From the IMG/VR virus record IMGVR_UViG_3300037313_001869, positions 352,001 to 416,000 of that record: a DNA stretch of 64,000 bases. One strand, given 5' to 3'. The notes below the pieces were generated by a model. That model saw nothing but the letters and a program-made list of their open reading frames with translations, was not told where the DNA came from and did no database searches. The position numbers and the translations under genes were made by a program. Source of the DNA: a virus (Duplodnaviria; Caudoviricetes). Below, piece by piece: positions 9,850-28,314 of this stretch (positions within the stretch are counted from its first letter, which is position 1; every line of letters starts with the position of its first letter).

Positions 9850-10251
9850 CTACTTGATCAGCTCGACCAGGTCCGCGAAGATCGAGGCAACCTCGGAATG
9901 GCCGTTCGCGTGCCCCAGCTCGTACGCTTTGGCAAAGCAGAGGTCGGCCTTCGGGTTCTTGGTCACGTCGTGGTAGAGCAGGAGATCCCGGCGAAACTCG
10001 ACATCGAGCCTTGCCTGATCCCGATTGCAAGCGGTCATGGCGGACTGGCCCCCGCGCCAGTCGAGCTTGGTCTTGTAGTAGTCGTTGTCGAGCTTCTCCC
10101 GGAACGCGAGGACGAGCGTGGTCTCCTCGGGAGAAGACCCGCGGGCCTTCTTCTCCGGCTTGATCTTCTTCAGGGCCGGGGGCTTCTTCGCCGGAGAAGG
10201 GGCGTCGTCCTCGCTGATGCGGTCAAACCGGGTCTTCTGGCTTTTTGCCAT
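9850..10251 (-). CDS. hypothetical protein, N-terminal TRFDR motif
   Basis: MAKSQKTRFDRISEDD. Confidence 0.75.
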   Translation of the reverse strand: MAKSQKTRFDRISEDDAPSPAKKPPALKKIKPEKKARGSSPEETTLVLAFREKLDNDYYKTKLDWRGGQSAMTACNRDQARLDVEFRRDLLLYHDVTKNPKADLCFAKAYELGHANGHSEVASIFADLVELIK

Positions 10252-10274
10252 GGCATGGGCTCCTTGAACGGGAG

Positions 10275-10301
10275 AGACGTTCGAGGCGTCTCGGTTTTTC
10301 C
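10275..10301 (-). promoter_or_regulatory. class I promoter-like motif
   Basis: GGAAA-N17-CGTCT. Confidence 0.7.
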
Positions 10302-10306
10302 CTGAT

Positions 10307-10654
10307 TCAACGTCGCGAAGATGCCAGCCTCGCAGCGCTGTCTCGGAGCGCGAACCGGTCCATCGAAGCCACCGGCCCTTCCGGCAGACCTTCGACGCTG
10401 CTCGCCCGGACGTAGAGCACGAGCACGGGCGTATCGCGCCAATCGATAAGCCAGGGCCGCTCCCGCATGGCTTCCAGGGTCACGACGACGATCGTGCGCC
10501 GGTCCCAGCCCTCTTGCTCCAGGGCTTCGCCGCTCTTCACCAGGACCCAGCGGAACTCGGGCCGGTACATCCAGGCTTCCGGGTCTTCCTCGGGCGCGGT
10601 CTCCATCGTCACGTCCAGGATTCCGCCGGGCTTCCAGGTGGTGTGCGGGCACAT
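10307..10654 (-). CDS. hypothetical protein
   Basis: ORF in tight operon. Confidence 0.65.
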   Translation of the reverse strand: MCPHTTWKPGGILDVTMETAPEEDPEAWMYRPEFRWVLVKSGEALEQEGWDRRTIVVVTLEAMRERPWLIDWRDTPVLVLYVRASSVEGLPEGPVASMDRFALRDSAARLASSRR

Positions 10655-10656
10655 AC

Positions 10657-10929
10657 TCAGAGCCCCGGGACGTGGATCACGATGTAGCCCGAATCGCAGA
10701 TGACCGCGTCACGCTGGACGTAGCAGGCAAACGATTCGTAAGGCTCTGCCGACGCGGGCCTTTCCTTCTTCAGGTGCGGCCGGAACGCCACGCTCGAAGC
10801 CTCGGTGATCGGCTCGCCGTCGGGGTAGGCGGCCTCTTCTTTGACCAGTTCCGCGATGATGATCCGCCCCGCTTGCTCGAAGGTGGGGGCGTGGCCAACG
10901 TGGCGGCGGCCTTCTTTGATGCTCAGCAT
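10657..10929 (-). CDS. hypothetical protein
   Basis: ORF in tight operon. Confidence 0.7.
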   Translation of the reverse strand: MLSIKEGRRHVGHAPTFEQAGRIIIAELVKEEAAYPDGEPITEASSVAFRPHLKKERPASAEPYESFACYVQRDAVICDSGYIVIHVPGL

Positions 10930-10932
10930 GGC

Positions 10933-11121
10933 TCAGAGGGTCTCTCCGGTAAGAACACGGTAGAAGCGATCAGGCGGAGGGTCCTCGATGGTCACCCCAT
11001 CGTCGCCGCAGGTGATGATCGATGCCGAGAGACCCATGACCTCCGCGAGCGTCTGCCACTTCACGTCGACATCGACCGAGATCCGGATCGGCCCCGTTCT
11101 TCCGGGCAGGTACTCCGGCAT
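10933..11121 (-). CDS. hypothetical protein
   Basis: ORF in tight operon. Confidence 0.65.
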   Translation of the reverse strand: MPEYLPGRTGPIRISVDVDVKWQTLAEVMGLSASIITCGDDGVTIEDPPPDRFYRVLTGETL

Positions 11122-11124
11122 TGC

Positions 11125-11580
11125 TCAGCTCCCCCGGAGAAGGCGAAAGCGCTCGACCGCCTCGGCGAGGTCGTCGTCTTCGATATGCCCGAGCCGGCTC
11201 TCGTTCGGAGAGAGGGCGTTGCGGAGGAGCTGCCCGAGCCGCTGCTCCTTGTACTTCGGCTGCGTCCAGATCCACAAGATCCGCTCGACGATCTGCCGCT
11301 TCTGATCGTCGGTGACGGCCCGGCCGCGTGGTGAGATCGCCACGTTCACGATGTCGAGGTCGTCGAGGAGGTTGTCGCCCGCGCCGTTGTCGACCTCGTC
11401 GCCGAGGTCCCGGAAGGAAGCGAGCAAGGAGCTGTAGAGAACGGCAAGCTGGGCCGGCGAGAGGTGCTCGCGCAAGTACCTGCCGTGCTCTAGCCAAGTC
11501 CGGGCTGTCGAGCCCTGCAAGAGGTCCCGGAGCCGCCCGGTCATGGCTTGGGCGTTTGCCCGGGCCTCTTCGAGGGTCAT
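11125..11580 (-). CDS. hypothetical protein
   Basis: ATGA overlap; contains RLGQLL motif. Confidence 0.7.
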   Translation of the reverse strand: MTLEEARANAQAMTGRLRDLLQGSTARTWLEHGRYLREHLSPAQLAVLYSSLLASFRDLGDEVDNGAGDNLLDDLDIVNVAISPRGRAVTDDQKRQIVERILWIWTQPKYKEQRLGQLLRNALSPNESRLGHIEDDDLAEAVERFRLLRGS

Positions 11581-11774
11581 GGGTGCGCGAATCCCTCCCG
11601 GATCATCCGGGCTAGGTGGTTGGCCATTGTCCGGTGGTCGCTTGGGGTCCCGCTGGTCACCAGGATGCGTCTCCCCGCTTCGGGGGGCACGAACCGCCAG
11701 TGGCTCTTTCGTGTCCTCTCCACCTTCCACCCCTGCCTTCGCGCCTCTCGGATCACCTTTGCTAGATCGTCCAT
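11577..11774 (-). CDS. HicA-like mRNA interferase fold protein
   Basis: GWKVERTRKSHWRF.PP....VTSGTPSD.R...N. Confidence 0.65.
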   Translation of the reverse strand: MDDLAKVIREARRQGWKVERTRKSHWRFVPPEAGRRILVTSGTPSDHRTMANHLARMIREGFAHP

Positions 11775-11790
11775 GGGTCACGCTTTCTTT

Positions 11791-12327
11791 CTACACCGGG
11801 GTTGTGGTCTCAGGCTGGGCTGGGGCCTCGCCCTTTTCGAGCGCCGCGATCTCGCTCTCGATCTTGCGAGTCTTCTCCCGAAGGACCGAGAGCGTCACCT
11901 GAAGGGAACGGACGCGCTCGCTCGTCATCTTGCGCTTCTCCTTGGCGTACGAGATCGCCTGACGAGCCGTCGGGAGCGCCTGGAGGATGACGTAATCCTC
12001 GGTGAGGACCATCACCACGCCGAACCAGCGCTTACGCCGCAGGGCGCCGCGCGAGGTCCGGTAGTCGGCCGCGAACTCCAGGGCATCGAACACGTCGAGC
12101 GCCCCGACCATGTAGAAGCACTCGCCCCGCGCCGGGTCGAGAAAGTCCCGGGAGAGTCCCCCGGGCTTGGTCGGATCGATGCCAATGATCGCAACCCAGT
12201 TGCTCCCCCGCTCGTGCGTCTCGTGGATCGGTACCTCCATGAGGGCGCCGTTCGCCACGGCAAGCTTCACCGGCTCGGCGGGGGCCGTCGACACATTCAG
12301 AGGGGCTTTGCGTACTGGGGTGGTCAT
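11791..12327 (-). CDS. hypothetical protein with C-terminal coiled coil
   Basis: ORF. Confidence 0.75.
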   Translation of the reverse strand: MTTPVRKAPLNVSTAPAEPVKLAVANGALMEVPIHETHERGSNWVAIIGIDPTKPGGLSRDFLDPARGECFYMVGALDVFDALEFAADYRTSRGALRRKRWFGVVMVLTEDYVILQALPTARQAISYAKEKRKMTSERVRSLQVTLSVLREKTRKIESEIAALEKGEAPAQPETTTPV

Positions 12328-12376
12328 GGGGTGCCTACGTGCTCTCTCGGAAGGGCTCTGCCAAGTCCGGTAGTTT

Positions 12377-12673
12377 TCAGCCGTAGTCGGGGTCAGGGTG
12401 GGCGTGCTGCTCCCCGTATTCCTTCTGGAGCTTGTCTTGCTGATCTCGCAAGAAGTCCCAGTTGTACCCCGTGTCCGGCCGCTCCTCGATGGTGATGAAG
12501 AGCCCGTAGCTCTCCTGTTTGACCTTCGAGACGATGGCCCAGCCGCCCGCGAAGTCGTCCTCGCCGTGGTCGATGTACCACGCGCTCGGAACGTAGATCC
12601 GGTCGCCTACCTGGGGCGGGTCGTTCCGTGTTTTCTCTGTGTCGCCTGCGATCCGATCGAAACGGGTTGCCAT
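12377..12673 (-). CDS. hypothetical protein, N-terminal TRFDR motif
   Basis: MATRFDRIAGD; GGTGTAG upstream. Confidence 0.75.
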   Translation of the reverse strand: MATRFDRIAGDTEKTRNDPPQVGDRIYVPSAWYIDHGEDDFAGGWAIVSKVKQESYGLFITIEERPDTGYNWDFLRDQQDKLQKEYGEQHAHPDPDYG

Positions 12674-12682
12674 ACGGTAGAG

Positions 12683-12970
12683 CTACACCGGCGGCTCTCG
12701 GTAGTAGCGGGGCAGGGTCATCGGAAGGGCCGAGATTTTCCAGCCCTGCGCGGCCAGGGCCTCGAAGGCAAAGCGCCGGACCTCGCTGTTATCGAACACT
12801 AGCTCCGCTCCCCACCAGCCTACCTCGACCACCCCAGCCCGTAGGCTCGTCTCTCCGATCTGAAGGGTCATCCCGGCCCGCAAGTTCTTGCGCCAGAAGG
12901 CCGCTTCGTGCTCCCGAGGCTCTCGCTTTCGGAAGAGATTCCACAGACTAAACGGGAGCTTCACGGTCAA
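12683..12970 (-). CDS. hypothetical protein, RFDR-type tail
   Basis: ends LPRYYREPPV; start uncertain. Confidence 0.65.
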   Translation of the reverse strand: MTVKLPFSLWNLFRKREPREHEAAFWRKNLRAGMTLQIGETSLRAGVVEVGWWGAELVFDNSEVRRFAFEALAAQGWKISALPMTLPRYYREPPV

Positions 12971-13490
12971 ACCTCGTGGGTACCGGTTCGATCAGGTAGT
13001 AGGCGGCGAGGTCTTCGAGCCTCACCCGGAGCTTCTCGCCCGAGGGACACACGACCTCGGCTTCGTCTTCCTCGTCGAGCACCTGAAGGACCGTGACGAG
13101 CCCCCGCTTGGGGTACCGGACGTTTGTACCCTTGCAAAGCCTCGCCCTCAAGTAGCAGACGTGGTCGTTCACTTCATCGACGAAGGCTTCTCCGTCCTTC
13201 GGGGTCCAGCCGGGCGGGGGCTCGCCGCGAAACCGCACCCAGTAGGCCGTGTAGAGGAGGTTGTCAGCTTCGTCGAACAAGGCGTTCTTGCTCGCCAGGG
13301 TCCCGCTGAGCGTCGCCCGATCCGAGACCCGATCGTACTCGGCGACCAGGGCTTCGTAGGTCCAGACCCGGGGTGGTCGGGTCTCTCCCGTTCTCGCGTG
13401 CTCCATCTTCCGGTCGAGGCAGTCGCCGCAAAGAAGGGGCGAGCCGGGCTTGATGCGGCACCCCAAGCATTCGACGAACGGCTCGCCCAT
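12948..13490 (-). CDS. zinc-finger hypothetical protein, RFDR tail
   Basis: CLGC/CGDC; ends PTRFDREAPV. Confidence 0.75.
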   Translation of the reverse strand: MGEPFVECLGCRIKPGSPLLCGDCLDRKMEHARTGETRPPRVWTYEALVAEYDRVSDRATLSGTLASKNALFDEADNLLYTAYWVRFRGEPPPGWTPKDGEAFVDEVNDHVCYLRARLCKGTNVRYPKRGLVTVLQVLDEEDEAEVVCPSGEKLRVRLEDLAAYYLIEPVPTRFDREAPV

Positions 13491-13493
13491 CGC

Positions 13494-13799
13494 TCAGATC
13501 CTTTCGTAGCGGCTCGGGAACCGGGCCCGTGCGGCCTGCTCTTGTTCGATCTCCCACTCGATCTGCGCAAACCAGAGGTCGAACTCCTCCCGGGCAGCGA
13601 GGTTCTCCGGCAGACGAAAGGTCCATACGCCCGCCGCGTAGGAGGTGCTCAAGAAGCCCTGGTAGGTGAGGCTCTCCGCCTCCGGGCTAGCGGCCTCCCT
13701 CGCCTCGGTGATGGCCCCCTGCGCGAGGAGCCTCTGAAGAAACGCTAGCTCCTTCGGCGTCGGTCGGTAGCTCTTTTGCATCGTCAACCTCACTCGCAT
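13494..13799 (-). CDS. hypothetical protein, RFDR-type tail
   Basis: ends PSRYERI. Confidence 0.75.
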   Translation of the reverse strand: MRVRLTMQKSYRPTPKELAFLQRLLAQGAITEAREAASPEAESLTYQGFLSTSYAAGVWTFRLPENLAAREEFDLWFAQIEWEIEQEQAARARFPSRYERI

Positions 13800-14100
13800 C
13801 GCCTACCCTCTCGTACCTCGTTGGAAGCGCTTCGTGCTCCGCTTCGGCCTTCGCTTCCTCGTCGAGCTGCTTCAGGACCTTCATGTCCTCGGAAAGCCTC
13901 ATGAATGCCTGGGTGATGAGGTCGAAGCCCCGGGCCCTCACCGCCCACGAAGCCCCGTACGGTGCCTGGGGCAGGGCGTCCAGCTCGGCTCTTTCGGGCG
14001 GGTCCTCCCCGGCTTCCTCTCGAACCCTCGCCTTCTCGGCCTCCTGGGCTTCGGCCGCTTTCAGGGTTTGGGTGATGCTCTCTTCGAGGTCCTTGTCCAT
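13687..14100 (-). CDS. hypothetical protein with PTRYERV motif
   Basis: MDKDLEE; ORF runs 113 nt into the next gene. Confidence 0.6.
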   Translation of the reverse strand: MDKDLEESITQTLKAAEAQEAEKARVREEAGEDPPERAELDALPQAPYGASWAVRARGFDLITQAFMRLSEDMKVLKQLDEEAKAEAEHEALPTRYERVGDASEVDDAKELPTDAEGASVSSEAPRAGGHHRGEGGR

Positions 14101-14108
14101 CGCTTCTT

Positions 14109-14492
14109 TTACACCCGTTCGTACCGGAGCCGTGGGGCGCCCACCTGCCATTTCACCACCTCGTCGAGGGGCCAGACGTGGTAGGCGCCCCCGTGGCATT
14201 GGGGGCGAAACCGGATATCCTCGCGCTCGATCGAATCGACCTGGATCGACTCCCCGTTGTAGTGCCGGAGAAAGGCCCCTGGGTGGACCCAGGCGAGCAG
14301 GGCCGTCACAGCCGGGTTCTCGGGGCGCTCCGGTACCCGGCAGAAAAGCGGCTGAGCCGCCCGGGGCTTCAGCCCCGCGGCCTCGATCTTCGCCCGGAGC
14401 TTCTCTGTGGCCACGGCCTTCCGCCGCCGGTCCACGAGCCAGTTCGCCACCGGGCCGTCCAGGATCTCTCGCTCGTAGCGGGTCGGGGCCAT
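14109..14492 (-). CDS. hypothetical protein, motif at both termini
   Basis: MAPTRYERE ... PRLRYERV. Confidence 0.75.
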   Translation of the reverse strand: MAPTRYEREILDGPVANWLVDRRRKAVATEKLRAKIEAAGLKPRAAQPLFCRVPERPENPAVTALLAWVHPGAFLRHYNGESIQVDSIEREDIRFRPQCHGGAYHVWPLDEVVKWQVGAPRLRYERV

Positions 14493-14908
14493 CAGATCGG
14501 CTCGTCCCGGTCGAACCGGGTTGGGGGTGGCGGGGGCGGCGGCGCTTTCGGGAGGTTGCCCGTGCTCGACGAGCGGTAGATCATCCCCTCTTTCTGGAGC
14601 TGGCTGATCAGCCTATGAACGACAGAGAAGTCCTGCCCCGAGGTCGTGACGGGCGGGTCCGGGTGGTAGACCGTGACCCCTTCCGATCGCAGAGCCTCGA
14701 CGGCCCCGACTCTTCCCGGTTCCCAGGGCCCGAGCGGGATCTCTCGGCAGGGGTTCCGGCCGATCGAAGGAGGCGGGAGGAGGGTGCCTGGCTCGGCCGG
14801 AGGGGGCGGCAGGATCACGACTCGCCCTTCGGCGAGGAGCCGTCGCATTTCTTCGAGCGAGGGCGGGAGCGACGCGGCTTCGGAGGCGAGGTCGATTCGG
14901 GTGGGCAT
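14492..14908 (-). CDS. Pro-rich hypothetical protein, RFDR tail
   Basis: ends PPPTRFDRDEPI; start uncertain. Confidence 0.65.
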   Translation of the reverse strand: MPTRIDLASEAASLPPSLEEMRRLLAEGRVVILPPPPAEPGTLLPPPSIGRNPCREIPLGPWEPGRVGAVEALRSEGVTVYHPDPPVTTSGQDFSVVHRLISQLQKEGMIYRSSSTGNLPKAPPPPPPPTRFDRDEPI

Positions 14909-15309
14909 TCGAGGTTGATCCTCTCGTAACGGGTCAGGCGGTCGTCGAGGTGCGCTGCGCCGCACGGGCCCCGGCGCTTGCTCGGTTTGGTGATGCCACG
15001 GTCTTCGAGGGCCCGCACGAACCGGCTCCGCTGGGCCCGTGCGGCGGCCTCTTCTTCGTCAAAGAACGCGCCAGCCTTCATCAAGGTGAAGAAGAACGTT
15101 TGCCGGAGCTTTTCGCGGGGGTTCCTCCCGGGCCAGACCTCATTGAGCTGATCGAGGTGCCGCATGGCGTTCTTGTAGGTTTGGTCCAGCTCTTGGATCA
15201 CCTCGGTCTCGCCCCGCATCTGAAGGAACCCGATGGTCTCGGCGAGAAGCCGAGCGAGCTTGTCGGGATCTTCACGAGCCGCAACGACACGCTGACGAAA
15301 CCGTTTCAC
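14815..15309 (-). CDS. hypothetical protein with TRYERI motif
   Basis: GTG start after GGTGTC motif. Confidence 0.65.
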   Translation of the reverse strand: MKRFRQRVVAAREDPDKLARLLAETIGFLQMRGETEVIQELDQTYKNAMRHLDQLNEVWPGRNPREKLRQTFFFTLMKAGAFFDEEEAAARAQRSRFVRALEDRGITKPSKRRGPCGAAHLDDRLTRYERINLECPPESTSPPKPRRSRPRSKKCDGSSPKGES

Positions 15310-15353
15310 GTCTTCTAAGACACCGATCCCCCGGTGTCAGAGAGAGCACGGCC

Positions 15354-15617
15354 ATGAGCTACCGCGAACCTGCCCCCGTAGAGGCTCTTCCCGAGCCCCA
15401 GAAGCGCTCGTTCCGTCTGCCCCGGGCCTTGCGCCTGTCCGACGGGGCCGTCCGGTTCTGGCTCATCGTAGGCGCCTCGGTGCTCGGAAACGGGGTCAGT
15501 CACCTCTGCATCGCTTTCAAGGCCGGTGGCTCGCTCGCGGCACCGGTGGCCCTGCTGGTCATCGGTGCCGTCCTCCTCGTCGTGACGATCGTGTGGGCGA
15601 TCCTGAGCGACCCCTGA
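15354..15617 (+). CDS. 2-TM membrane protein
   Basis: two hydrophobic segments; N-terminal YREPAP. Confidence 0.75.
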   Translation: MSYREPAPVEALPEPQKRSFRLPRALRLSDGAVRFWLIVGASVLGNGVSHLCIAFKAGGSLAAPVALLVIGAVLLVVTIVWAILSDP

Positions 15618-16024
15618 TGCCCAAGATCGACAAGAGCTGGTACGCGATCTGCTGGGAGGTCCCCTTCTGCCCCGCGTGCGACTGGGCCGCCTACGAAGCG
15701 TGGTGGGCCTCGGGTGACCGGGAAGAAGAGCAAGAGCAGCTCATCCGGCTCGCCCACGCCCGAGCCCACCCTGACCGTTACCCCACCATCACCTTTGCCG
15801 ACGAGCCCATGACCTACCGCAACCCCGCCCCCATCGAGCCGACCGAACCCCAGCCGAAGCCTCTCGACCTCGAACGTTTCACCCCGGGCCGGGTCTTCGG
15901 TACCATGGCGGCCGGCTTCCTCGCGATCGTCGGGCTTCTCACCTTGGAGTTCGGCACGCAGGTCCTCGGCTGCGCCGCGCTCTTCGTGATCTTCCTCGTC
16001 CTCGTCGCCTTCATCCCCCAGTGA
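15617..16024 (+). CDS. membrane protein (possible internal start MTYRNPAP)
   Basis: TGATG overlap; two C-terminal TM segments. Confidence 0.65.
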   Translation: MPKIDKSWYAICWEVPFCPACDWAAYEAWWASGDREEEQEQLIRLAHARAHPDRYPTITFADEPMTYRNPAPIEPTEPQPKPLDLERFTPGRVFGTMAAGFLAIVGLLTLEFGTQVLGCAALFVIFLVLVAFIPQ

Positions 16025-16272
16025 AAGAACCCATGTACGAGATCGTCACCCGCCAGGTCTACTCTCGCAAGAAGCTCGCCCTCGTCACGCTACGGGAGAT
16101 CGAGCCCGTGACGCACGAGGTCCTGAAGGAGAGCGCCCGGCCCCCGGTTGGCACGACCCTCCGCGACCAGCTCGGCAACCTCTGGAAAGTGAAGAGCCAC
16201 GTCGGCGCGGCCGTGGCTCTTTCGGGTCCGAGCGATCTGCCTTCGGGCAACTACTTCGAGACGGGGAAGTGA
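16021..16272 (+). CDS. hypothetical protein
   Basis: GTGA overlap. Confidence 0.65.
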   Translation: MKEPMYEIVTRQVYSRKKLALVTLREIEPVTHEVLKESARPPVGTTLRDQLGNLWKVKSHVGAAVALSGPSDLPSGNYFETGK

Positions 16273-16451
16273 GCCCCACGCAGGGGCCGGCCCCGCGAGG
16301 TCTTTTCCTTGGGGGCGCCCTGCTTCTCTAGCGCCGCCCGGAGCTTCGCCTCGTCGCCGAAGGTCCGGTAGCTGTAGCCCTGCTCCAGGTGCCGGACCTT
16401 CCAGGCGCCGGGCCCGTCCTCGACCGCCTCCATGGGCCCGACCTGGATCAT
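16251..16451 (-). CDS. hypothetical protein
   Basis: ATGA overlap, MIQVGP. Confidence 0.55.
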   Translation of the reverse strand: MIQVGPMEAVEDGPGAWKVRHLEQGYSYRTFGDEAKLRAALEKQGAPKEKTSRGRPLRGAHFPVSK

Positions 16452-17011
16452 GCGCTCAGGGTTTCGGTCGGGCTCGCGAGCGACGGGGACGAAGGCGTGG
16501 GCGATGATGACGACGGGTCGCTCGCGGGTGAGAGGACGGGGGCGCTCTTGGGCGACCGGGGCCGGGGGGACCTCTTCGCCTTTTCCTTCGGGGCGTTCGG
16601 CTCCTTCGAGATCGAGAACGCCTTGGTCTTCTCGTCCTTCACCAGCATCCGGTCCTTCCTCAGGTGGTAGAGGACGTTGTAGACCTTCGTTTTGTCCTCC
16701 CCCGCCGTCCCCAGAAGCTTCAGCAGGGCCCGGGTCTTCATCGGGCCGCGGTCCTGGATCAGGTCGTAGACCTGCTTCCGAAGGCCGGTGTGCGGCCCTC
16801 CGACCGGGCCGCGGGACGGGGCGGGGGGCACGCCGGGGTTCGCCGCCCTCCGCGAGAAAGGGCCCGGGGGCGCCTCCTGGCCCGACGCGGTCTCGATGTC
16901 CGTGGCGACGGAGGAGAGCAGCCGGAGAGCCACCTCCGGCGAGAGCGGCGCGAGCGTCCGAAGGACCTCCGCCTTGATCTGGGCCTGCTCGGCCAACGCT
17001 TGGATAGCCAT
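16448..17011 (-). CDS. winged-helix DNA-binding protein
   Basis: VYDLIQDRGPMKTRALLKLLG...VYNVLYHLRKDRML. Confidence 0.6.
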   Translation of the reverse strand: MAIQALAEQAQIKAEVLRTLAPLSPEVALRLLSSVATDIETASGQEAPPGPFSRRAANPGVPPAPSRGPVGGPHTGLRKQVYDLIQDRGPMKTRALLKLLGTAGEDKTKVYNVLYHLRKDRMLVKDEKTKAFSISKEPNAPKEKAKRSPRPRSPKSAPVLSPASDPSSSSPTPSSPSLASPTETLSA

Positions 17012-17020
17012 GGCTCCTGT

Positions 17021-20800: not shown

Positions 20801-20859
20801 TTCTTGCGATGGCCATGGACCCAAAAAAATTTGGGAATGGACGCGACGTTTTCCCCGGA

Positions 20860-21204: not shown

Positions 21205-21212
21205 GTCAAAGA

Positions 21213-21236
21213 GTACACCGGTGATCTTCGGTGTAG
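21213..21236. promoter_or_regulatory. back-to-back class II CGGTGTA motifs at a divergent junction
   Basis: GTACACCG...CGGTGTAG between ATG 21204 and ATG 21248. Confidence 0.6.
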
Positions 21237-21247
21237 AGAACCGGGCG

Positions 21248-21757
21248 ATGCACCCCTCCGAGCGCCTCGTGGCCTTTCTCTATGACCTCATGCGGGACAA
21301 CCTCCCGGTCGGCACCGTCGAGCAGCTCGTGCGGAACAACGAGCCCATCGGGCTCGGCGAGATGGTCACCTACTCGAACAAGTACCTCGCGACCTACGCC
21401 CGGGAGCTGGCCATCCGGCTCACCTCGGTCATCGTCCAGACTCCGCACGAAGAAGCCGCGACCCTGCCCATCACCCGCATCCTCTACGGCCTCGCCTCCC
21501 ACCGGCTCGTCCCCTTGCAAAATCTTGGGCCCATCGTCGATCAGGTCGTCAAATGCCCCAAGACCCCGACGAGCATTGGAGGGGTCCGGGTCCCGGCCCC
21601 TTCGCCCGCGGCCCGGCTTCTCTGCGTCCTCGCCGCCAACAACATTCCCTTCGACAAACTCCCGCCCGGCACCTCGATCGCCGACCCGCCCGATCTCGAC
21701 GTGGGGCTCTGGCAAGGCTGCCGCGTCTGGGCGAGACGCATCGTAGAGGAGACCTGA
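21248..21757 (+). CDS. hypothetical protein
   Basis: MHPSERLVAFLYDLMRD. Confidence 0.75.
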   Translation: MHPSERLVAFLYDLMRDNLPVGTVEQLVRNNEPIGLGEMVTYSNKYLATYARELAIRLTSVIVQTPHEEAATLPITRILYGLASHRLVPLQNLGPIVDQVVKCPKTPTSIGGVRVPAPSPAARLLCVLAANNIPFDKLPPGTSIADPPDLDVGLWQGCRVWARRIVEET

Positions 21758-21759
21758 CC

Positions 21760-22212
21760 ATGAAAGTCCTGGAAAAAGGCACCCCCACCGCTCCCACCTG
21801 GACCGCCGAGGTCCTCTGCACCGGCGTCGGTACCGGAGGGGGCGGCTGCGGCGCCAAGCTCCTCATCGAGAAGGACGACGTGGTGGCCGTCCCCCACCCC
21901 GACGGCCACGCCGCCCAGATGTTCGCCTTCTGCTGCCCCGAGTGCGGCGTCGAGACGGGCATCGCTTCGGTACCCAGCTTCGTCCGGAGCCAAGCCCGGG
22001 TGATGCCCGCCCAGGCCCCGGTCGACTCCGGCGAAACGGCCCGGCTCATCGCCCGGATGACCGAGGCCCGCATCGCCGTCGAGGCGATCCGCCCCCCTTC
22101 GCACCGGGGCTCTTGCCCCATCGAAGACGACACCTCGTACGCCCCGTGCAACTGCGGCGCAAGCGACGTAGAGCGGGCGATCGAAAAAGCCAAAACCCTC
22201 CTGAGGGTCTGA
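21760..22212 (+). CDS. zinc-ribbon protein, paralogue of 22871-23158
   Basis: CTG..GGGCGAKLLIE...CPECGVET. Confidence 0.8.
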   Translation: MKVLEKGTPTAPTWTAEVLCTGVGTGGGGCGAKLLIEKDDVVAVPHPDGHAAQMFAFCCPECGVETGIASVPSFVRSQARVMPAQAPVDSGETARLIARMTEARIAVEAIRPPSHRGSCPIEDDTSYAPCNCGASDVERAIEKAKTLLRV

Positions 22213-22216
22213 CCCC

Positions 22217-22624
22217 ATGCCCAAAACCCGGTTCGATCACATCTGCGGGGACGACGCCCCACCCCCCGTAGAAAAGGGCGTCTACAACACGGCCCCCGTC
22301 TGGCCCAAGGAAGACCGGTACGCCGCTCTGACCCGGATTCGCGAGGCCCGCCTGGCCCAGTGCCGGAAGAGGGGCTGCGTGGGCTGCCCTACGTGCCGGG
22401 CTATCGAGCGCGTCTTCGAGGCCGACCGGCAAGACGAGAGAAAGAAGGCCCGCGAGGCCGAAGACCAGGCGTGCATGGAAGAGCTACGGATTCTCTTCCA
22501 GGACCGGTGGCCCGACCCCATCGAGCTGATGGCGCAGGTTCTCGCCTTCATGAAAGACGCCCGTGTGGCCGGAGTCAACTTGCCCAATCTGATCCGGCAG
22601 TTGAAAGCTACCAAAGGGGTGTAA
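22217..22624 (+). CDS. hypothetical protein, N-terminal TRFDH motif
   Basis: MPKTRFDHICGDD; Cys cluster. Confidence 0.75.
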   Translation: MPKTRFDHICGDDAPPPVEKGVYNTAPVWPKEDRYAALTRIREARLAQCRKRGCVGCPTCRAIERVFEADRQDERKKAREAEDQACMEELRILFQDRWPDPIELMAQVLAFMKDARVAGVNLPNLIRQLKATKGV

Positions 22625-22634
22625 GGGCCAGGAC

Positions 22635-22874
22635 ATGAAAGCCAAGGTCGTCGAGTTCAACGTCATGCCCTTCGATCCCTACGAGCTGTGCGGGCTGCCC
22701 CCAGGGATCTCTCACATCCTCCTTCGCTTCTACGCCGACCCGGAGGCTACAGCCAGGATCGTGCGCTTCTTCAAGGAGAACGGCTTCATCATGGACGCCG
22801 ACGCCTCCCCTCCCCCTGGACCCGACCCTATCCTCACCGAGGGTGTCCCTGCCCTCCCGGAGAAAACGCCATGA
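22635..22874 (+). CDS. hypothetical protein
   Basis: GGTGTA upstream. Confidence 0.7.
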   Translation: MKAKVVEFNVMPFDPYELCGLPPGISHILLRFYADPEATARIVRFFKENGFIMDADASPPPGPDPILTEGVPALPEKTP

Positions 22875-23158
22875 GAGTCCTGAAGAAAGGCACCGGCCAG
22901 CGTGGCTGGAGCGTCGAGGCCGAATGCACCGGAGCCAACAACGGCGGCGGCGGGTGCAGCGCGAAGCTCCTCGTCGAGCAAGACGACCTCTACAAGACCT
23001 ACTCCTCCGACCGCCCCGGCTACCAGATGCACATCACCTTCCGCTGTCCCGAGTGCGGCGTCGAGACGGACGTGCCCGACAACAAAGTCCCGGGCCACGT
23101 CGTCTCGAAGCTCGTCGACAAGAAGGACAGGCACCCTACCGACCGGGACCCGCTCTGA
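22871..23158 (+). CDS. zinc-ribbon protein, paralogue of 21760-22212
   Basis: CTG..GGGCSAKLLVE...CPECGVET. Confidence 0.8.
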   Translation: MRVLKKGTGQRGWSVEAECTGANNGGGGCSAKLLVEQDDLYKTYSSDRPGYQMHITFRCPECGVETDVPDNKVPGHVVSKLVDKKDRHPTDRDPL

Positions 23159-23664
23159 TGAGCGACGCCATTCTTGCCCAGGCTCGTATCTCGTTCCGGA
23201 GTCTTGGCGTCCGCGACGCGAACCTTCGGATTGAACCTTCCATCGAGGAGCGGACCGCCCGCGGACCCGACGAGGGCCCGTTCGCTTCGCTCCTCGAAGC
23301 CACCGTTCCCTCAGGACGGACCTACCACCTGGTGAGGGGCGACGAAGACCTCGTCGTGGGCTACCTCGCGATCCGTAACGGCAGGGTGGTCGAGTGCGGC
23401 ATTTCGTGGATCGCCACCGACATGGCCCTGGGCCTTTCGGTTCTTCTTCCCGCCCCCATGGCCACGGTCCGGATCATTGATGCCCCGTGGTTTCACCTCC
23501 GGGCCCTTTGGGTCACCGACCCCTCGGGTCTCGAACGCTGCTGGGTCGGAACGCCCCCCTTCCCCTGGGACGGACCGAAGGGGGAGCAAACCCCGGAGAC
23601 TGTCTGCCACGCCCTCGCGAACAGGACCCCGGAAGGAGGCATGGTCACGGTCTTTCTCGACTGA
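23158..23664 (+). CDS. hypothetical protein
   Basis: TGATG overlap. Confidence 0.65.
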   Translation: MSDAILAQARISFRSLGVRDANLRIEPSIEERTARGPDEGPFASLLEATVPSGRTYHLVRGDEDLVVGYLAIRNGRVVECGISWIATDMALGLSVLLPAPMATVRIIDAPWFHLRALWVTDPSGLERCWVGTPPFPWDGPKGEQTPETVCHALANRTPEGGMVTVFLD

Positions 23665-23667
23665 GCC

Positions 23668-23958
23668 TCAGGTGACGAACGCGCCCCAGCCGGCGAGGTT
23701 GACCGCGAGCACGGCCGTTTTGTGGGGAACGGCCAAGAGCGTGCGCAGCAAGTCATCGGTCGGCTGGCCCGGCTGCATCGGTAGATCGAGCCTCCGACCC
23801 GCCACCCGGACGATCCCCCCCTCGTCCCAGTAGGCCGCGAGGCCGGAGAGATCGTAGCTCTCCGTCGAGCACGCGCAGTCCGTCTGCACGTCGAGGTGGA
23901 AGGCTTTCAGCAAATCCTTGCTCACGCCAGAGAGCCGGAAGACGGGGTCGTCAGCCAC
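23668..23958 (-). CDS. hypothetical protein
   Basis: ORF. Confidence 0.6.
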   Translation of the reverse strand: MADDPVFRLSGVSKDLLKAFHLDVQTDCACSTESYDLSGLAAYWDEGGIVRVAGRRLDLPMQPGQPTDDLLRTLLAVPHKTAVLAVNLAGWGAFVT

Positions 23959-24436
23959 GCTTCTCTGCCTTCGCCCTGCGCCTCGCCATGTACCCGGGCT
24001 TGTAGTCGGGCAGCCGAACCACCGGACCCTCCGAGAACGAGGCGTACCAGAAGATCCCGTTGTGGCCCGGGTCCTCGTCCTGGTTGTGGCACCGGAGCGT
24101 CAGCACTTGGCTCATCGGACGCTTGTAGTGGATCTCGTCGCGGACCGAGACCACGACGTACTTCCACATCCCCTCGGTCCCTCGTCGCGGCGTCGCAAGA
24201 TCGGGCGCATGGTCGATGATGTAGAGCCGGTGCCCGAGCGGCCTCTTGAACGACGGCTGCTTCTTGCCCTCTCGCTTCCGGGTGAACGAGTAGCCGTAGC
24301 CCGCGTAGATCCCGGGGGTGCAATACTTCGGCCGAAGGTCGTCCTCTCGTTCGATCCCCTCCTCGATCAGCACGGCCAGGGTCGTGCGGTAGCGGGAAGG
24401 GTCGATCTCAGGTTTGCCCGTCAGGTCGATCAGCAT
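23951..24436 (-). CDS. hypothetical protein
   Basis: GGTGTAG upstream. Confidence 0.75.
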   Translation of the reverse strand: MLIDLTGKPEIDPSRYRTTLAVLIEEGIEREDDLRPKYCTPGIYAGYGYSFTRKREGKKQPSFKRPLGHRLYIIDHAPDLATPRRGTEGMWKYVVVSVRDEIHYKRPMSQVLTLRCHNQDEDPGHNGIFWYASFSEGPVVRLPDYKPGYMARRRAKAEKRG

Positions 24437-24443
24437 CCCTTCC

Positions 24444-24638
24444 CTACACCAGCCACGACTCGAACGGGAGAAGCTCGTAGCCCACCGGCACGAGCTTCTT
24501 TACCCCGCCCTGCCCCCAGACCCAGGCGTGGGTCCCCAGCGCTACCCAGGCGTCCGCTTCTTCGAGGCTCGTCGCCGAACCAAGGCTGAGATTCGGCAAG
24601 ACCACGCCGACAACCTCCGTCACGCTCCAGCCCCTCAC
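24444..24638 (-). CDS. hypothetical protein
   Basis: GTGA overlap; start uncertain. Confidence 0.5.
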   Translation of the reverse strand: MRGWSVTEVVGVVLPNLSLGSATSLEEADAWVALGTHAWVWGQGGVKKLVPVGYELLPFESWLV

Positions 24639-25096
24639 CCGATCTTGTCCCATCGCGTGCTCCTCTTCTCTTCTTCCTCGAACTTCGCGTACGCCAGGCG
24701 GGCACGGTAGAGCGACTCCCGCGCCTCTTCCTCGTCGTGGTGGCACTCGGTCTCGCCGAACCTCCCGTCGGTGACGAGCCACACGTCGTCCTCGACCCTT
24801 CTCATCCTCGGCCCAAGCTCCAGGTCGGGCTCCGTCCTCATGTGCCAGTCCACCCCCACCTTCACGAGCCCCCGGTCATGCAAGGTCAGCGCTGCCGACG
24901 AGACCTCCCCCCGAGAGCCCTCGTAGGGGTACTCGTTCGGCATCAGCCCCTCCTCGCCTCGTTCGTGAACCGCGAGCAGAAGCCGGACTTCAAGATCGGT
25001 GAGCGGGCGCAGGGCCATGGCCCGGGTACCTACACCGGGCTTGGCGGTGAGCCAGTAGTTGGGCGTCGGGACGACACGCAGGTCACGGGGGCTCAT
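24635..25096 (-). CDS. hypothetical protein (wHTH-like), ends STRWDKIG
   Basis: ATGA overlap; alternative start MALRPL after GGTGTAG. Confidence 0.65.
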   Translation of the reverse strand: MSPRDLRVVPTPNYWLTAKPGVGTRAMALRPLTDLEVRLLLAVHERGEEGLMPNEYPYEGSRGEVSSAALTLHDRGLVKVGVDWHMRTEPDLELGPRMRRVEDDVWLVTDGRFGETECHHDEEEARESLYRARLAYAKFEEEEKRSTRWDKIG

Positions 25097-25323
25097 GGTT
25101 TGACCCCGACCTCTGCCAAGGCCCGAAGGGCCCGGGCGTCCTCTTCCCTCCGGATGAGGTCCATCAGGAGCTTCGGCCTCGGGTCGAGGCCAAGCGCCCG
25201 ATCCAGAAACCGATCCTTCCAGGCGAACCGGACGTAGGGCGTAGGACCCGGGAGACTCTCGACCTGAAGCTCTCCGGCCAGGATGGCGATAACCCGCGCG
25301 TCTTCGTAGTCAGCGATCGTCAT
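25093..25323 (-). CDS. hypothetical protein
   Basis: ATGA overlaps. Confidence 0.7.
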   Translation of the reverse strand: MTIADYEDARVIAILAGELQVESLPGPTPYVRFAWKDRFLDRALGLDPRPKLLMDLIRREEDARALRALAEVGVKP

Positions 25324-25616
25324 GGGGTTGCTCCGCAGTCAGGACAAACCGAACGAGGCGTCGGCCGGACCCAGTCGCAGATCGGGCACGCCCTCGCGTC
25401 CATGTACCGGTCGGCGCAGCCGTGGCACTGCCTCAGCCCCCGGCCCCGATCCCCAGGGACGCCGCACGACCCGCCGAGGAGCCTCCCCCCGCACACGTCA
25501 CACCGACTCCCGCGGTAGGCCCGGTACCGAGCCCGCGACCACGCCGCAGCCCACCGGAGCAAGGCCCCTACCACGACCCCGAGCCCGAACACGGCAAGGG
25601 CTGCGGGGCTGGTCAC
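25320..25616 (-). CDS. membrane-anchored multi-CxxC protein
   Basis: N-terminal TM, four CxxC. Confidence 0.65.
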   Translation of the reverse strand: MTSPAALAVFGLGVVVGALLRWAAAWSRARYRAYRGSRCDVCGGRLLGGSCGVPGDRGRGLRQCHGCADRYMDARACPICDWVRPTPRSVCPDCGATP

Positions 25617-25993
25617 GGCTTCTTCTTCCGGTCTTCGAGCCGCTCGGGCACAGCCCTCTTGAACATCGCCGAAGCCCGCGCCTGCGTCATGCCCGGGACC
25701 CGCTTGACCATCTGGCCCACGAAGTAGTCCTTGGCCCGGTGGTAGAGCACGACCCGGTTCACGACCGCCTCGACCCGCGTGAGCCCCACCCTCGTGCAAG
25801 GCTCACACGACAGCTCCCACGGCTGCGGGTGCTGCCGATAGTCCTCGCAATAGAGGGCCCGAGAACGGCCGCAGCTCTGGCATTTACCCCTGGCCTTCCA
25901 GACCTTGAAGTGGAGGTCGCCGACGCTCTGGTGGATCGTGAACGTCTCGGGCTCTTGCGGCAGGGCCGGTGTTTTCTTGGGCTTCGGGGGCAT
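25613..25993 (-). CDS. zinc-finger protein
   Basis: CQSC...CEPC; GGTGTA upstream. Confidence 0.75.
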   Translation of the reverse strand: MPPKPKKTPALPQEPETFTIHQSVGDLHFKVWKARGKCQSCGRSRALYCEDYRQHPQPWELSCEPCTRVGLTRVEAVVNRVVLYHRAKDYFVGQMVKRVPGMTQARASAMFKRAVPERLEDRKKKP

Positions 25994-26054
25994 GGGACCT
26001 ATTTACACCCGTGGACCGAAAAAATGGCCGGGGGAAAATTTTGGAGCCGGGCTC

Positions 26055-26231
26055 CTAGTCCCGATCGGTCTCGACTTCGGCGCGGACCTCGGCCTTCGCC
26101 CCCGTTCGCTCCGCTTGCGTCTCGATCTGCTTTCGCTTCGACCACGCCCGCTTCTGGTTCCGGGACCCGAGCACCGTGTCCTTCCAGAACTTGCAGCGCT
26201 GTCCGTACCGGCTCTTGTTCGACCTGCTCAT
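26055..26231 (-). CDS. 58-aa basic protein (absent from ORF track)
   Basis: MSRSNKSRYGQRCKFWKD...ETDRD; purine-rich RBS. Confidence 0.55.
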   Translation of the reverse strand: MSRSNKSRYGQRCKFWKDTVLGSRNQKRAWSKRKQIETQAERTGAKAEVRAEVETDRD

Positions 26232-26535
26232 GATTTACCGCCTTTCCCCAGAAAAAGAACCGGGGGACTTTTTAGGAGGCCCGGGCCTCCGAGGGGCCTT
26301 TTCGGTTTTACCTGAAAAATGCGGCCGGGCCAGTTTTTCCATGGGAGATACCGGGTTTTGCCCGGTCACGATCCATTTCCGCTCGCCTACTGAATACGCC
26401 CATTTACGCTACCCGTGCAAAACGAAAACGATAATGAAGCGGTTTTTCGTTGCACTTCCGGAGGGTCTACCCAGTGACCCCCGGAGATACGTTTCAGTCT
26501 TACGAGCGGGTTCGATGGGCACTACCCTCCCGTCC

Positions 26536-26721
26536 ATGCAAGAAAAAAGCGATGCGATCGAGAGACCGAACCGCAAGATGCGCCGGGCCGTGGCGAAGAC
26601 CTACCGATCGAACCCAGGGGCCGAGGTGGTAGGTCTTGAGCTACCGCGCGAGGACATGACCCGCGACACGAAGAGGCGCGAGGGAGGGAAGACGGGCCGG
26701 TTCTTCCCCTCGGGCACGTAA
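26536..26721 (+). CDS. small basic protein
   Basis: MQEKSD...NRKMRRA; TAA stop shared with convergent TTA. Confidence 0.6.
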   Translation: MQEKSDAIERPNRKMRRAVAKTYRSNPGAEVVGLELPREDMTRDTKRREGGKTGRFFPSGT

Positions 26722-26997
26722 GTCAACGAAGAAATCGCGAAGGGCCTTCTTGGCCTCTGCGAGGGTGGAGAAGCTCTTCTCGTCGAGGGCGTCTGCCCCC
26801 GGGCGGGAGAAGGCCCGGCCCACGAGGGCCACCTTGTAGCCGGTGACCTCGACCCTCTGCTGTCGGGTCGAGCCCACGTAGGAGACGGAGACCTCCCGCT
26901 CGATGTAGCCCACGAGGGCCTCGCCGTGGTGGACGAGGGCCGAGGGGTTGTTGCCGGGGGTGACCTTGCCGAGCTTGCCGAAGGAGAGGAGGGACAT
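26719..26997 (-). CDS. hypothetical protein, ends at TTA
   Basis: MSLLSFGK...ALRDFFVD then TTA; class I motif upstream. Confidence 0.7.
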
Positions 26998-27004
26998 GGG
27001 GGAG

Positions 27005-27031
27005 AGACGAGCGGGAGGGGGGCTTTTTTCC
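27005..27031 (-). promoter_or_regulatory. class I promoter-like motif
   Basis: GGAAA-N17-CGTCT. Confidence 0.75.
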
Positions 27032-27069
27032 AAAAAAGCCTTCCCCAGGGGGGTGTACTGGAGGGGGCG

Positions 27070-27744
27070 ATGCGAAACGCTCTTCCCGTCAAGCCGGCGG
27101 AGTGGCCCGAGCGGGCCTACAAGCTGGCGTACGTGAGCCCGTCCTGGGGCCCGGAGGGGTCTAGCCGAGACCTCTCGGACCTGATGAAGCTTCCGGTGCC
27201 GAGCCTGCTCCTGCCGCCCGCGGTGGTGCTTCTCTGGGTACCTGGGGGCAAGCTGGAGGAGGGGCTGGATCTGCTCTGGGGGTGGAAGCTCCATTACCGG
27301 GGGGTCGCGTTCGTCTGGGTGAAGACCGACAGCAAGGGGGTACCTCTCGGGGCGCACGGGCCGAGGCCGACGGTCTCTTCGAGGGGGTCAACCGAGCTTG
27401 TGCTGGCGGCCGAGACGGGGCCGGAATACGTGCTCGCGGGATCGACCGAGAAGAGGGGCCGGCCCTTGCCCATCGTGGACGAGACCGTGGGCCAGGTGGT
27501 GATGGCCCCTGTAGGTCCTCGGCCCCCGGAGGTGCGAGCGAGGATCGAGCGCATGTACGGCTCGGCCGTCTCTCGGGTCGAGCTGTTTGCGCCGGGCGAG
27601 GTACCGGGGTGGGACGTATGGGCCCCCGGGGCCGCGGTGGTGGTCTCGGCTCCTTCTCGGGAGGGGGCGGAAGAGAAGCCTGCCCCCCAGGGCGGGACCG
27701 AGAAAGAGGGCTTCGAGCTGGCGATGGGCCTCGACGATGAGTGA
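27070..27744 (+). CDS. MT-A70 family methyltransferase homologue, catalytic motif degenerate
   Basis: LLWV, AFVWVK, STELVL, RVELFA, GWDVW; DPPW replaced by SPSW. Confidence 0.75.
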   Translation: MRNALPVKPAEWPERAYKLAYVSPSWGPEGSSRDLSDLMKLPVPSLLLPPAVVLLWVPGGKLEEGLDLLWGWKLHYRGVAFVWVKTDSKGVPLGAHGPRPTVSSRGSTELVLAAETGPEYVLAGSTEKRGRPLPIVDETVGQVVMAPVGPRPPEVRARIERMYGSAVSRVELFAPGEVPGWDVWAPGAAVVVSAPSREGAEEKPAPQGGTEKEGFELAMGLDDE

Positions 27745-28066
27745 AGAGACCCCGAAGCCCCCGATGCGAAAGGGCGACCGCTACCGGGTGCGGGCTCCGT
27801 ACGGGGGCTGGGCCGAGGGCCAGGTGATGATCGTCTCGGAGGCCCGGGCGTGGGGCGGCTGGCTCGGGGGCTTCCGGGTGCAGCTCATGGGGCAGGAGCA
27901 GCGAGGGGACCTCTTCTTCGAGATCAGCGTCACCTTGAAGACGACCGAGGCCGTGGCGGCGTGGCAGGAGAAATGGGAGCTACTGCCCCGGGCCAAGCGA
28001 AAGAGCCCTTCCCACCGGGCCTACGGGCGAAGGGTCAAGAGCCGCTTCGAGAGGGTGCTCGGGTGA
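27737..28066 (+). CDS. SH3-like hypothetical protein, RF tail
   Basis: ends KSRFERVLG. Confidence 0.7.
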   Translation: MSEETPKPPMRKGDRYRVRAPYGGWAEGQVMIVSEARAWGGWLGGFRVQLMGQEQRGDLFFEISVTLKTTEAVAAWQEKWELLPRAKRKSPSHRAYGRRVKSRFERVLG

Positions 28067-28314
28067 GACTGCCCAGGATGGGCGCTTGCTTTCAGCTCGT
28101 CCGGCCCTTCGGGGGCTGGACGGTGGGCGAGAGGGTCGAGGTCGGCGCCATCAACGACGGCTACGTCTGGCTCTGGACCTACCCCGAGGTTCTCAACCCC
28201 TACGGCCACCGGGACTGGACCGCCTGCGTGCCCCTGAAGGGGTGGCTGAAATGGGTGAAGCCCTGGAGAGAGGTCCCCCTGCCCACCCGGTACGAGCGGG
28301 TGCTCAGCGGGTGA
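28063..28314 (+). CDS. SH3-like hypothetical protein, RY tail
   Basis: ends PTRYERVLSG. Confidence 0.7.
   Translation: MRLPRMGACFQLVRPFGGWTVGERVEVGAINDGYVWLWTYPEVLNPYGHRDWTACVPLKGWLKWVKPWREVPLPTRYERVLSG

Follow-up and report, generated by a model that had tools for sequence, protein, structure and literature searches.

The stretch of DNA we investigated, called the window in the following, comprises 64,000 nucleotides (nt) of the virus record IMGVR_UViG_3300037313_001869 (positions 352,001 to 416,000) and is part of the genome of a huge soil phage in which about one protein in six (~15-20%) carries the same ten-residue peptide, R[FY][DE]R in its core form. This peptide, the RFxR tag, is found mostly at the C-termini of small proteins and is equally frequent in the closest huge-phage relatives; its anatomy, as far as the sequences reveal it, looks like that of an address or docking label. 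The record, G000 below, is a single contig of 435,218 bp with direct terminal repeats and a GC content of 64.8%; plain coordinates are positions in the window, which corresponds to G000:C1:352001-416000. Genes were called with a self-trained codon model that treated TTA as a stop, which gave 629 genes; the use of TTA as a stop is supported by a gene that closes with a complete tag followed by TTA (last gene of the array in Table 1). The major capsid protein (g268, 292 amino acids (aa)) matches gp27 of phage G (PDB 6wkk, E 1e-59) as well as the Pfam family Phage_capsid, and its nearest database relatives are found in the uncultured phage LR745208.1 (485 kb, 83% identity), Tunturiibacter phage Tunturi_5 (47%), and Bacillus phage G (38%). 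Judged by the relatedness of its capsid, G000 is a phage-G-type huge phage. A megablast search of the region against cultured phages returned no match, and full-text literature searches found no description of the RFxR tag.

The tag is concentrated at protein ends far beyond what composition predicts. R[FY][DE]R falls within the last 12 residues of 84 of the 629 genes, compared to 0.4 genes in 200 shuffles (maximum 3) and 0.65 genes predicted from the density of the motif in protein interiors. The first 16 residues contain it in 5 genes, where ~0.5-0.9 are expected. This amounts to an enrichment of ~200-fold at C-termini and ~10-fold at N-termini. Six-frame translation of G000 yields 152 matches, 53 of them exactly four codons and 12 exactly one codon before a stop, and the looser variants RFAR, RYDK, RFNH, RFGR, RYYR, and RWDK add ~25 genes. 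The tagged genes crowd both arms beside the genome ends, from ~330 kb through the terminus to ~66 kb, and are scarce in the conserved core of structural and replication genes. An earlier reading of the window, made from the sequence only, had pointed to the motif on a list of genes between 9850 and 28314 and had called for shuffled controls; every gene on that list carries a motif of the R[FY][DE]R type at the end it had been assigned to, and the terminal enrichment it anticipated is borne out by the counts given above.

The tag occurs in two classes. A logo over 168 instances shows proline at position -2 (60%) and threonine or serine at -1 (77%), followed by R, F/Y, E/D, and R, and the 12 residues upstream of the tag are 2.7-fold enriched in proline. 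In class A the motif RFxR is followed by two polar residues, [VP], and [LIV], and in 88 of 90 cases these four residues are the last of the protein. Because of this fixed four-residue register, a free C-terminal end almost certainly matters for class A, to judge from the sequences. In class B the motif is directly followed by I, L, or V, usually with acidic residues next; 78 of these tags are near C-termini, 17 are internal, and four are N-terminal, and nearly all internal tags fall into this class. Within the region studied, the N-terminal tags and the internal tags close to an end all belong to class B, except for MAPTRYERE in 14109-14492, where a glutamate follows the motif. The earlier claim that the tag does not need a free C-terminus therefore holds for class B but not for class A. 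In the gene at 12377-12673 a stop codon lies four codons upstream of the ATG, so that the tag occupies the earliest possible N-terminus. The open reading frame (ORF) at 13687-14100 continues for 39 codons beyond its tag, and its tail overlaps the gene at 13494-13799 by ~100 nt.

The conserved unit is the peptide and not the underlying nucleic acid. The motif is written with four arginine codons (CGC, CGG, CGT, AGG), both phenylalanine codons (TTC, TTT), and all four codons for aspartate and glutamate (GAC, GAT, GAG, GAA); in logos of codons and nucleotides the wobble has a clean period of three, and nothing is conserved past the stop. Because the wobble positions vary freely and conservation ends with the stop codon, selection on the motif acts on the peptide and not on a DNA or RNA element. 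The tag is also kept on genes whose downstream neighbor is convergent, which shows that it is not a coupling or promoter element for the next gene; this observation rules out translational coupling. A Shine-Dalgarno-like bias (GAG-AGG, GAGGTG) overlies the tag codons, but it cannot account for the conservation. An RNA hairpin or T-loop-like structure in CGGTTCGA was considered and rejected, as the pairing, inspected by eye, is not maintained across copies. A scan for sigma-70-type promoters in 9500-29400 found 0 sites.

The proteins that carry the tag have little else in common. In BLAST comparisons among them (E<1e-5) we found no relatedness beyond weak paralogy inside the array; none of the 20 tagged G000 proteins tested has a Pfam family, and ten further tagged proteins from the relatives G001 and G002 (see below) gave one weak RecA/KaiC-like match below the cut-off. 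Where tagged proteins match PHROG families, the function of these families is unknown; overall, ~40 tagged proteins from the three genomes yielded hardly any match in Pfam or PHROG. The tagged proteins are small (median ~135 aa, range 42-374 aa), soluble, and slightly acidic, and transmembrane-like segments occur in 3-9% of them, not more often than in untagged proteins. Homologous proteins differ in whether they have the tag. Of g106 and its homologue B_274, only g106 runs on into a terminal RDRFERVDDE, and g481 (9850-10251) has an N-terminal extension of ~45 aa, made up of tag and linker, that its G001 homologue A_115 does not possess. Since homologous cores occur with and without it, the tag, by these comparisons, is a portable add-on. 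In the orthologue sets g420/A_697/B_384 and g014-016/A_028 the tag is kept while the cores have diverged down to 30-40% identity; A_420 has the variant TRLER at the position of NRFDR in g115. The sequence-only reading had proposed a portable label that addresses proteins genome-wide. Peptide-level selection, portability, genome-wide spread, and conservation across related phages of very different GC content support the label, which is how the anatomy is best read; the address is what the explanations discussed below contest.

Degenerate DNA patterns for the peptide matched few contigs in IMG/VR, and reversed-pattern controls gave 0 matches. Four contigs were taken whole: G001 (512,571 bp, terminal repeats, 49% GC) with 44 and G002 (228,619 bp, 51% GC) with 39 tagged ORFs under a strict C-terminal definition, G004 (145,487 bp, 49% GC) with 28 near-stop matches, and G005 (71,488 bp, 50% GC) with 15. 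The consensus in these four is sharper, [RY]-P-T-R-F-E-R followed by a terminal EDVI or by IL-x-D-D and a short remainder. G000 and G001 have ~200 proteins in common, arranged in a syntenic core, which indicates that the tagged phages form one clade. Tag enrichment was not found in LR745208.1, Tunturi_5, or phage G. The whole genome of LR745208.1 contains 21 six-frame matches to the motif, none of which pile up at stops, and no alternative terminal 3-mer is enriched there. Because these three relatives show no enrichment, the tag is, from the genomes compared, a derived feature of one sub-clade.

The tag also occurs outside of phages. A pattern scan of 185,579 species genomes found matches on three contigs of an 8-Mb metagenome-assembled genome (MAG) labeled 'uncultured delta proteobacterium' (CAWEUH01), in which 8-10 ORFs end with PTRFERE[DP]VI. 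They are located in small islands between ordinary chromosomal genes, and each island (including the one at G003:C27:138001-158000) holds two to four tagged ORFs beside a VapE-like primase or an integrase. Apart from the tag, the tagged ORFs of the MAG share nothing with the phage proteomes, and among the island genes Pfam recognizes the VapE-like primase, the integrase, and a weak match to sigma-70 region 2, but otherwise nothing telling. The MAG thereby points to a candidate host lineage, and its islands show that the label is in use among other mobile elements as well; they may be satellites or defence islands that employ the phage tag and tap the same hub.

The explanation we favor is that a proline-rich flexible linker and P-[TS]-R-[FY]-[DE]-R, completed by polar-polar-[VP]-[LIV]-COOH in class A or by [ILV]-x-x-acidic in class B, would have been added to ~100 small and mutually unrelated accessory proteins, to let one common partner bind them all. 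In its general form this amounts to addressing on the scale of a proteome: one label of 8-12 residues would plug a diversifying library of effectors into a single phage machine, either an AAA unfoldase/protease or the capsid interior, and would have been copied by satellite-like elements. We rate this general form just short of an even chance. The more specific proposal is that the partner would be a phage-encoded AAA+ proteostasis machine, namely a Cdc48-like one-domain AAA ATPase or ClpX/ClpP, and that the tag would tether a large, fast-evolving library of small effectors, adaptors, or substrates to this unfoldase or protease; we infer both the existence of a single reader and its identity, and we propose docking on this machine only tentatively. 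In either form, it matters that a single label sits on about one phage protein in six and has been kept in several huge phages that come from different samples. To our knowledge, proteome-scale addressing of this kind has not been described for any bacteriophage. If one reader exists, it would reveal a new principle by which the 'dark matter' genes in huge phages are organized, their effector repertoires could be found from sequence by a scan of C-termini, and the peptide could serve as a naturally occurring tag, transferable to other proteins in order to load, tether, or destabilize them in these systems. The system would then be a viral counterpart of adaptor libraries of the F-box or proteolysis-targeting chimera (PROTAC) type, or of an effector secretion signal.

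Among possible phage readers, the best co-occurring candidate is the AAA family of g104 and its paralogue g561, although the support that co-occurrence provides is suggestive but weak. All five tagged phage contigs, even the 14% and 28% fragments, have orthologues of these ATPases, whereas there is none in LR745208.1, and both g104 and g561 lie among tagged genes. Their N-domain comprises ~140 aa of alpha/beta type without a clear likeness to a known fold, and the g104 subfamily has a C-terminal tail of poly-Asp/Glu. A model of the g104 N-domain (predicted local distance difference test, pLDDT, 74) has weak matches (Z 7-9) to the N-domain of spermine synthase and to adaptin-appendage platforms; the likeness to the latter, seen in a predicted structure, is a lead. 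A complex prediction that combined residues 1-345 of g104 (6-row alignment) with a tagged tail of 33 aa (89-row alignment) scored 0.00, which speaks neither for nor against binding. The second candidate is ClpX, encoded in G000 together with ClpP (Table 1). In G001, ClpX (277071-279446, 791 aa) carries an intein-like insert that splits Walker A between GPSG and the following C. The other proteostasis genes of G000 are those for a GroEL-type chaperonin, a J-domain protein (g214), and several classical AAA ATPases.

Several observations weigh against an AAA or Clp reader. Between the two subfamilies the AAA N-domain shows only moderate conservation, yet the tag is nearly invariant, and the pore loop, DLAG, does not contain the aromatic residue that processive unfoldases have. 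With 105 of 629 genes in common, LR745208.1 is rather distantly related; it is without the AAA gene, ClpX, and ~110 other genes, and the comparison with it therefore discriminates weakly; furthermore, the AAA gene is part of a conserved block at the boundary between arm and core. The MAG islands with tagged genes do not encode such an AAA protein, so that the reader could be that of the host or of a helper phage. More than 100 clients would also far exceed any AAA+ adaptor set we know of. On this evidence, the phage AAA/Clp machinery is a candidate partner only.

Near the AAA genes we noted two further loci. A family of 97-104-aa proteins (G000:C1:62530-62823 (+), A_418, B_015), with the terminal sequence L[KR]PPGR(S), is present in all tagged contigs but not in LR745208.1, and adjoins the AAA gene in G001. 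The conserved block beside the AAA gene also encodes a 2H phosphoesterase with a match to the Pfam family Acb1 (anti-CBASS) at G000:C1:64307-64870 (-).

Known systems provide partial parallels for docking on an unfoldase. The C-terminal XB tail of SspB is a short peptide at the extreme C-terminus, located behind a long flexible linker, that docks on ClpX, and the ssrA degron combines an adaptor-binding part and a terminal hydrophobic part at a fixed spacing. The RFxR tag likewise is a terminal peptide, with 84 instances within 12 aa of the end, behind a proline-enriched linker; the phage ClpX has the zinc-binding domain that reads XB tails and may bind the tag, and class A may combine two parts as ssrA does. 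C-motif 1, the ssrA-like signal that ClpX recognizes, has two or three small or non-polar final residues (LAA) and a free carboxylate; class A has [VP]-[LIV]-COOH in a constant register, but with acidic residues ahead of it. XB tails bind the dimer of the zinc-binding domain through a basic/hydrophobic sequence of the LRVVK kind, to which the tag has no obvious similarity. However, the sequences differ (LRVVK or AANDENYALAA versus PTRFEREDVI), as do the numbers of clients (a handful versus ~100). In the case of p97/Cdc48, many unrelated cofactors likewise bind an AAA N-domain through a short motif with arginine and hydrophobic residues, and p97/AFG2 D1 is what the phage AAA proteins are most similar to. 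The tag nevertheless fits none of the p97 motifs VIM (Rx5AAx2R), VBM (poly-Arg), and SHP (FxGxGx2h), the fold search with the modelled N-domain of g104 did not retrieve the double-psi-barrel N-domain of Cdc48, and the phage enzyme has one AAA ring instead of two. The logic of an adaptor library is also seen in the poxvirus ankyrin-PRANC proteins, a fast-evolving viral family in which variable target modules are joined to one C-terminal hub-binding element; PRANC, however, folds into an F-box-like helical domain of ~40 aa with host Skp1 as its binding partner, whereas the tag is a linear motif of 8-12 residues on non-homologous phage proteins. Signals of the Sec, Tat, sortase, and PEP-CTERM type were looked for, but no hydrophobic helix is found beside the motif, and tag and linker are hydrophilic.

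An alternative that we consider unlikely, yet take seriously, is that small proteins dock through the tag on the inside of the T=52 capsid of phage-G type, or on its scaffold, and that these effectors are packaged and injected with the DNA. The shell is taken here as ~3,100 copies of the 292-aa HK97-fold protein. A flexible linker with a short terminal peptide, mostly C- but sometimes N-terminal, is the established architecture of encapsulin cargo peptides, and here too an HK97-fold shell protein is encoded in the same element, although g268 is the virion capsid and not a separate encapsulin. Between G000 and G001 (65% versus 49% GC) g268 is 94% identical, compared to ~74% for the next most conserved protein, which would fit a hub under extreme constraint. 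The tagged phages also keep a tagged protein with a copy of capsid residues 12-139 (g079 in G000, diverged from g268); such copies are found in G001, G004, and G005, but not in LR745208.1. The small size of the tagged proteins would suit passage through the tail, and the tagged genes next to a VapE-type primase or an integrase in satellite-like islands would also be in keeping with this alternative. The T4 internal proteins (IPI-III, Alt) are a further parallel, as they are polymorphic, unrelated small proteins from hyper-variable loci with one short targeting peptide in common. Their signal, however, is an N-terminal peptide of ~10 aa that attaches to the scaffold core and is removed by the prohead protease at a final [LI]-x-E site; the phage tag is mostly C-terminal (84 versus five N-terminal), has no [LI]-x-E or other obvious prohead-protease site, and is 10-20 times more numerous. 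Short terminal address peptides of phages are known to us for a handful of proteins only, such as these. Tagged proteins are slightly acidic, in contrast to the basic T4 internal proteins. The charged tag also differs from encapsulin peptides, which are hydrophobic and glycine-rich with a consensus of the GSL type, serve one to four cargos, and are encoded beside the shell gene, whereas the tagged genes are located in the accessory arms, 100-200 kb from g268 and outside the structural module. In LR745208.1 the capsid is 83% identical, but there is neither the tag nor an alternative enriched terminal motif; phage G and Tunturi_5 do not have the tag either. In favor of capsid loading, giant phages are known to pack ejection proteins amounting to tens of MDa (PMC7411985).

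The near invariance of the tag across phages of 49-65% GC, and its presence on small integrated elements of the delta proteobacterium MAG that share nothing else with the phages, could also be explained by a conserved host protein, for example ClpX, another chaperone or protease, or a component of the transcription or translation apparatus, that reads the tag for the phages and mobile elements of one host lineage. The low number of tagged ORFs in the MAG (~8-10) marks the tag as a feature of mobile elements and not of the host proteome. However, a host protein as reader is conjectural, relatives close to the clade presumably encounter these universal hubs as well but do not have the tag, and the islands could equally rely on the reader of a helper phage. 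We regard a host hub as unlikely.

It is also conceivable that the tag is a degron and nothing else, which would time the removal of early or accessory proteins by ClpXP or a different protease without any tethering. The fixed distance of class A to a hydrophobic free C-terminus is reminiscent of established two-part degrons such as ssrA, ClpX reads C-terminal as well as N-terminal signals, and the phage encodes ClpX, ClpP, and a transfer-messenger RNA (tmRNA). The tag frame of this tmRNA, ANDNFAASPALAA, is of the canonical kind that ends in ALAA and unlike RFxR; a mimicry of the phage tmRNA tag was rejected for this reason. Internal class B copies are difficult to interpret as terminal degrons, and a phage in which ~17% of the proteome is unstable by design would be without precedent. 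We consider a role restricted to degradation improbable.

Two further explanations were weighed. The tagged genes might be paralogues that have diverged beyond recognition, with the tail as their slowest-evolving part. Array members are indeed detectable paralogues (26-39% identity) with M[RL][VI]x[VLI] N-termini in common, but the tagged set as a whole includes zinc-ribbon-like proteins, the capsid-fragment protein, and the RecA/KaiC-like ATPase; the tag comes and goes on homologous cores and sits at opposite protein ends, and a tail so strongly conserved would still need a function. Common descent is therefore very improbable. The weakest alternative holds that gene junctions carry a nucleic-acid signal, be it a promoter, an element for ribosome binding or coupling, a site of RNA processing, or a linker for recombination, and that this signal is translated by chance. 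It could appeal to the class A tail codons, which often read as a Shine-Dalgarno-like GAGG(T/A)G a few bases ahead of the next start, and to the over-use of AGG for the second arginine after GAG, but it is largely refuted and scarcely credible given that, in addition to the nearly free third positions, the convergent neighbors, and the absence of a consistent hairpin, arginine alternates between CGN and AGR, the same peptide is found in 65% and 49% GC genomes despite differing DNA, and the motif is always in the frame of the ORF, with all N-terminal copies in frame and open into the gene. Even taken together, non-functional and nucleic-acid explanations are decidedly improbable.

Table 1. Tagged genes of the window and other features discussed in the text (plain numbers are window positions; G000 numbers refer to the whole record).
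Location	Strand	Feature	Basis or remark
2726-3004	-	variant tag TLFDRVLREEP at end	motif read
6380-7063	-	227-aa protein, named a bL12-domain protein in the sequence-only reading, internal tag 30 aa before TTA stop	motif read
9850-10251	-	g481, 133-aa protein, N-terminal class B tag MAKSQKTRFDRISEDD (KTRFDRISEDD, nt 10230-10219), then Pro/Lys-rich linker	PHROG 10980 (function unknown)
12377-12673	-	98-aa protein, N-terminal class B tag MATRFDRIAGD (nt 12664-12653)	motif read
12683-12970	-	95-aa protein, variant tag LPRYYREPPV at end	motif read
12948-13490	-	180-aa protein, N-terminal CxxC and CxxC, class A tag PTRFDREAPV at end (nt 12974-12963)	no Pfam family
13494-13799	-	101-aa protein, short class B tag PSRYERI at end	motif read
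13687-14100	-	137-aa ORF, PTRYERVGDASEVDD (PTRYERVGD) 39 aa before stop	motif read
14109-14492	-	127-aa protein, two tags: N-terminal MAPTRYERE and C-terminal RLRYERV	motif read
14492-14908	-	138-aa protein, poly-Pro linker and class A tag PPPPPPPTRFDRDEPI at end (final residues PTRFDRDEPI)	motif read
14815-15309	-	164-aa protein, LTRYERINLE 34 aa before stop	motif read
17021-17434	-	137-aa protein, class A tag ETRFDRPDPV at end	motif read
17431-17631	-	66-aa protein, class A tag LPRFDREDPL at end	motif read
17643-17837	-	64-aa protein, variant tag PPTRFARV at end	motif read
19586-20770	-	394-aa untagged protein, distant paralogue of J-domain family (g214)	no Pfam match of its own
22217-22624	+	135-aa protein, N-terminal variant tag MPKTRFDHICGDD	motif read
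24635-25096	-	153-aa protein, weak variant STRWDKIG at end	motif read
27737-28066	+	109-aa protein, class B tag KSRFERVLG at end	motif read
28078-28314	+	78-aa protein, class B tag LPTRYERVLSG at end	motif read
33663-50932	+	array: ~35 small genes, 116-205 aa, weakly paralogous, nearly all with class A tag at end	last one RFDREGPL, then TTA
45432-46583	+	g561, Cdc48/p97-like single-domain AAA ATPase, inside array	Pfam AAA, E 1e-8
G000:C1:42960-43859	+	g079, tagged 299-aa protein with diverged copy of capsid residues 12-139	
G000:C1:58066-59166	+	g104, AAA ATPase, paralogue of g561	p97/AFG2 D1 in PDB, E 6e-24
G000:C1:103235-104575	-	g177, ClpX with C4 zinc-binding adaptor-docking N-domain	
G000:C1:215185-216063	-	g268, major capsid protein	
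G000:C1:269912-270439	-	tmRNA, tag frame closed by TTA	Rfam, 78.8 bits; ARAGORN found none
G000:274091-274564		ClpP homologue	

Two other terminal sequences were observed in these genomes. A group of larger, untagged proteins begins with a leader resembling D-P-L-x-x-R-V-x-x-x-[YF]; it is found in the window at 18681-19589 (-), 40997-42466 (+), and 50930-52054 (-), and the same type of leader occurs at G000:C1:132157-133503, 315661-317256, and 428385-429521. The group includes the J-domain protein and two weak matches to HExxH metallopeptidases, and the D-P-L-x-x-R-V leader may be a second address peptide. In G001, 8-10 proteins have SYWEG close to their start, a ~35-fold N-terminal enrichment that reflects paralogy within one family or else a further terminal motif.

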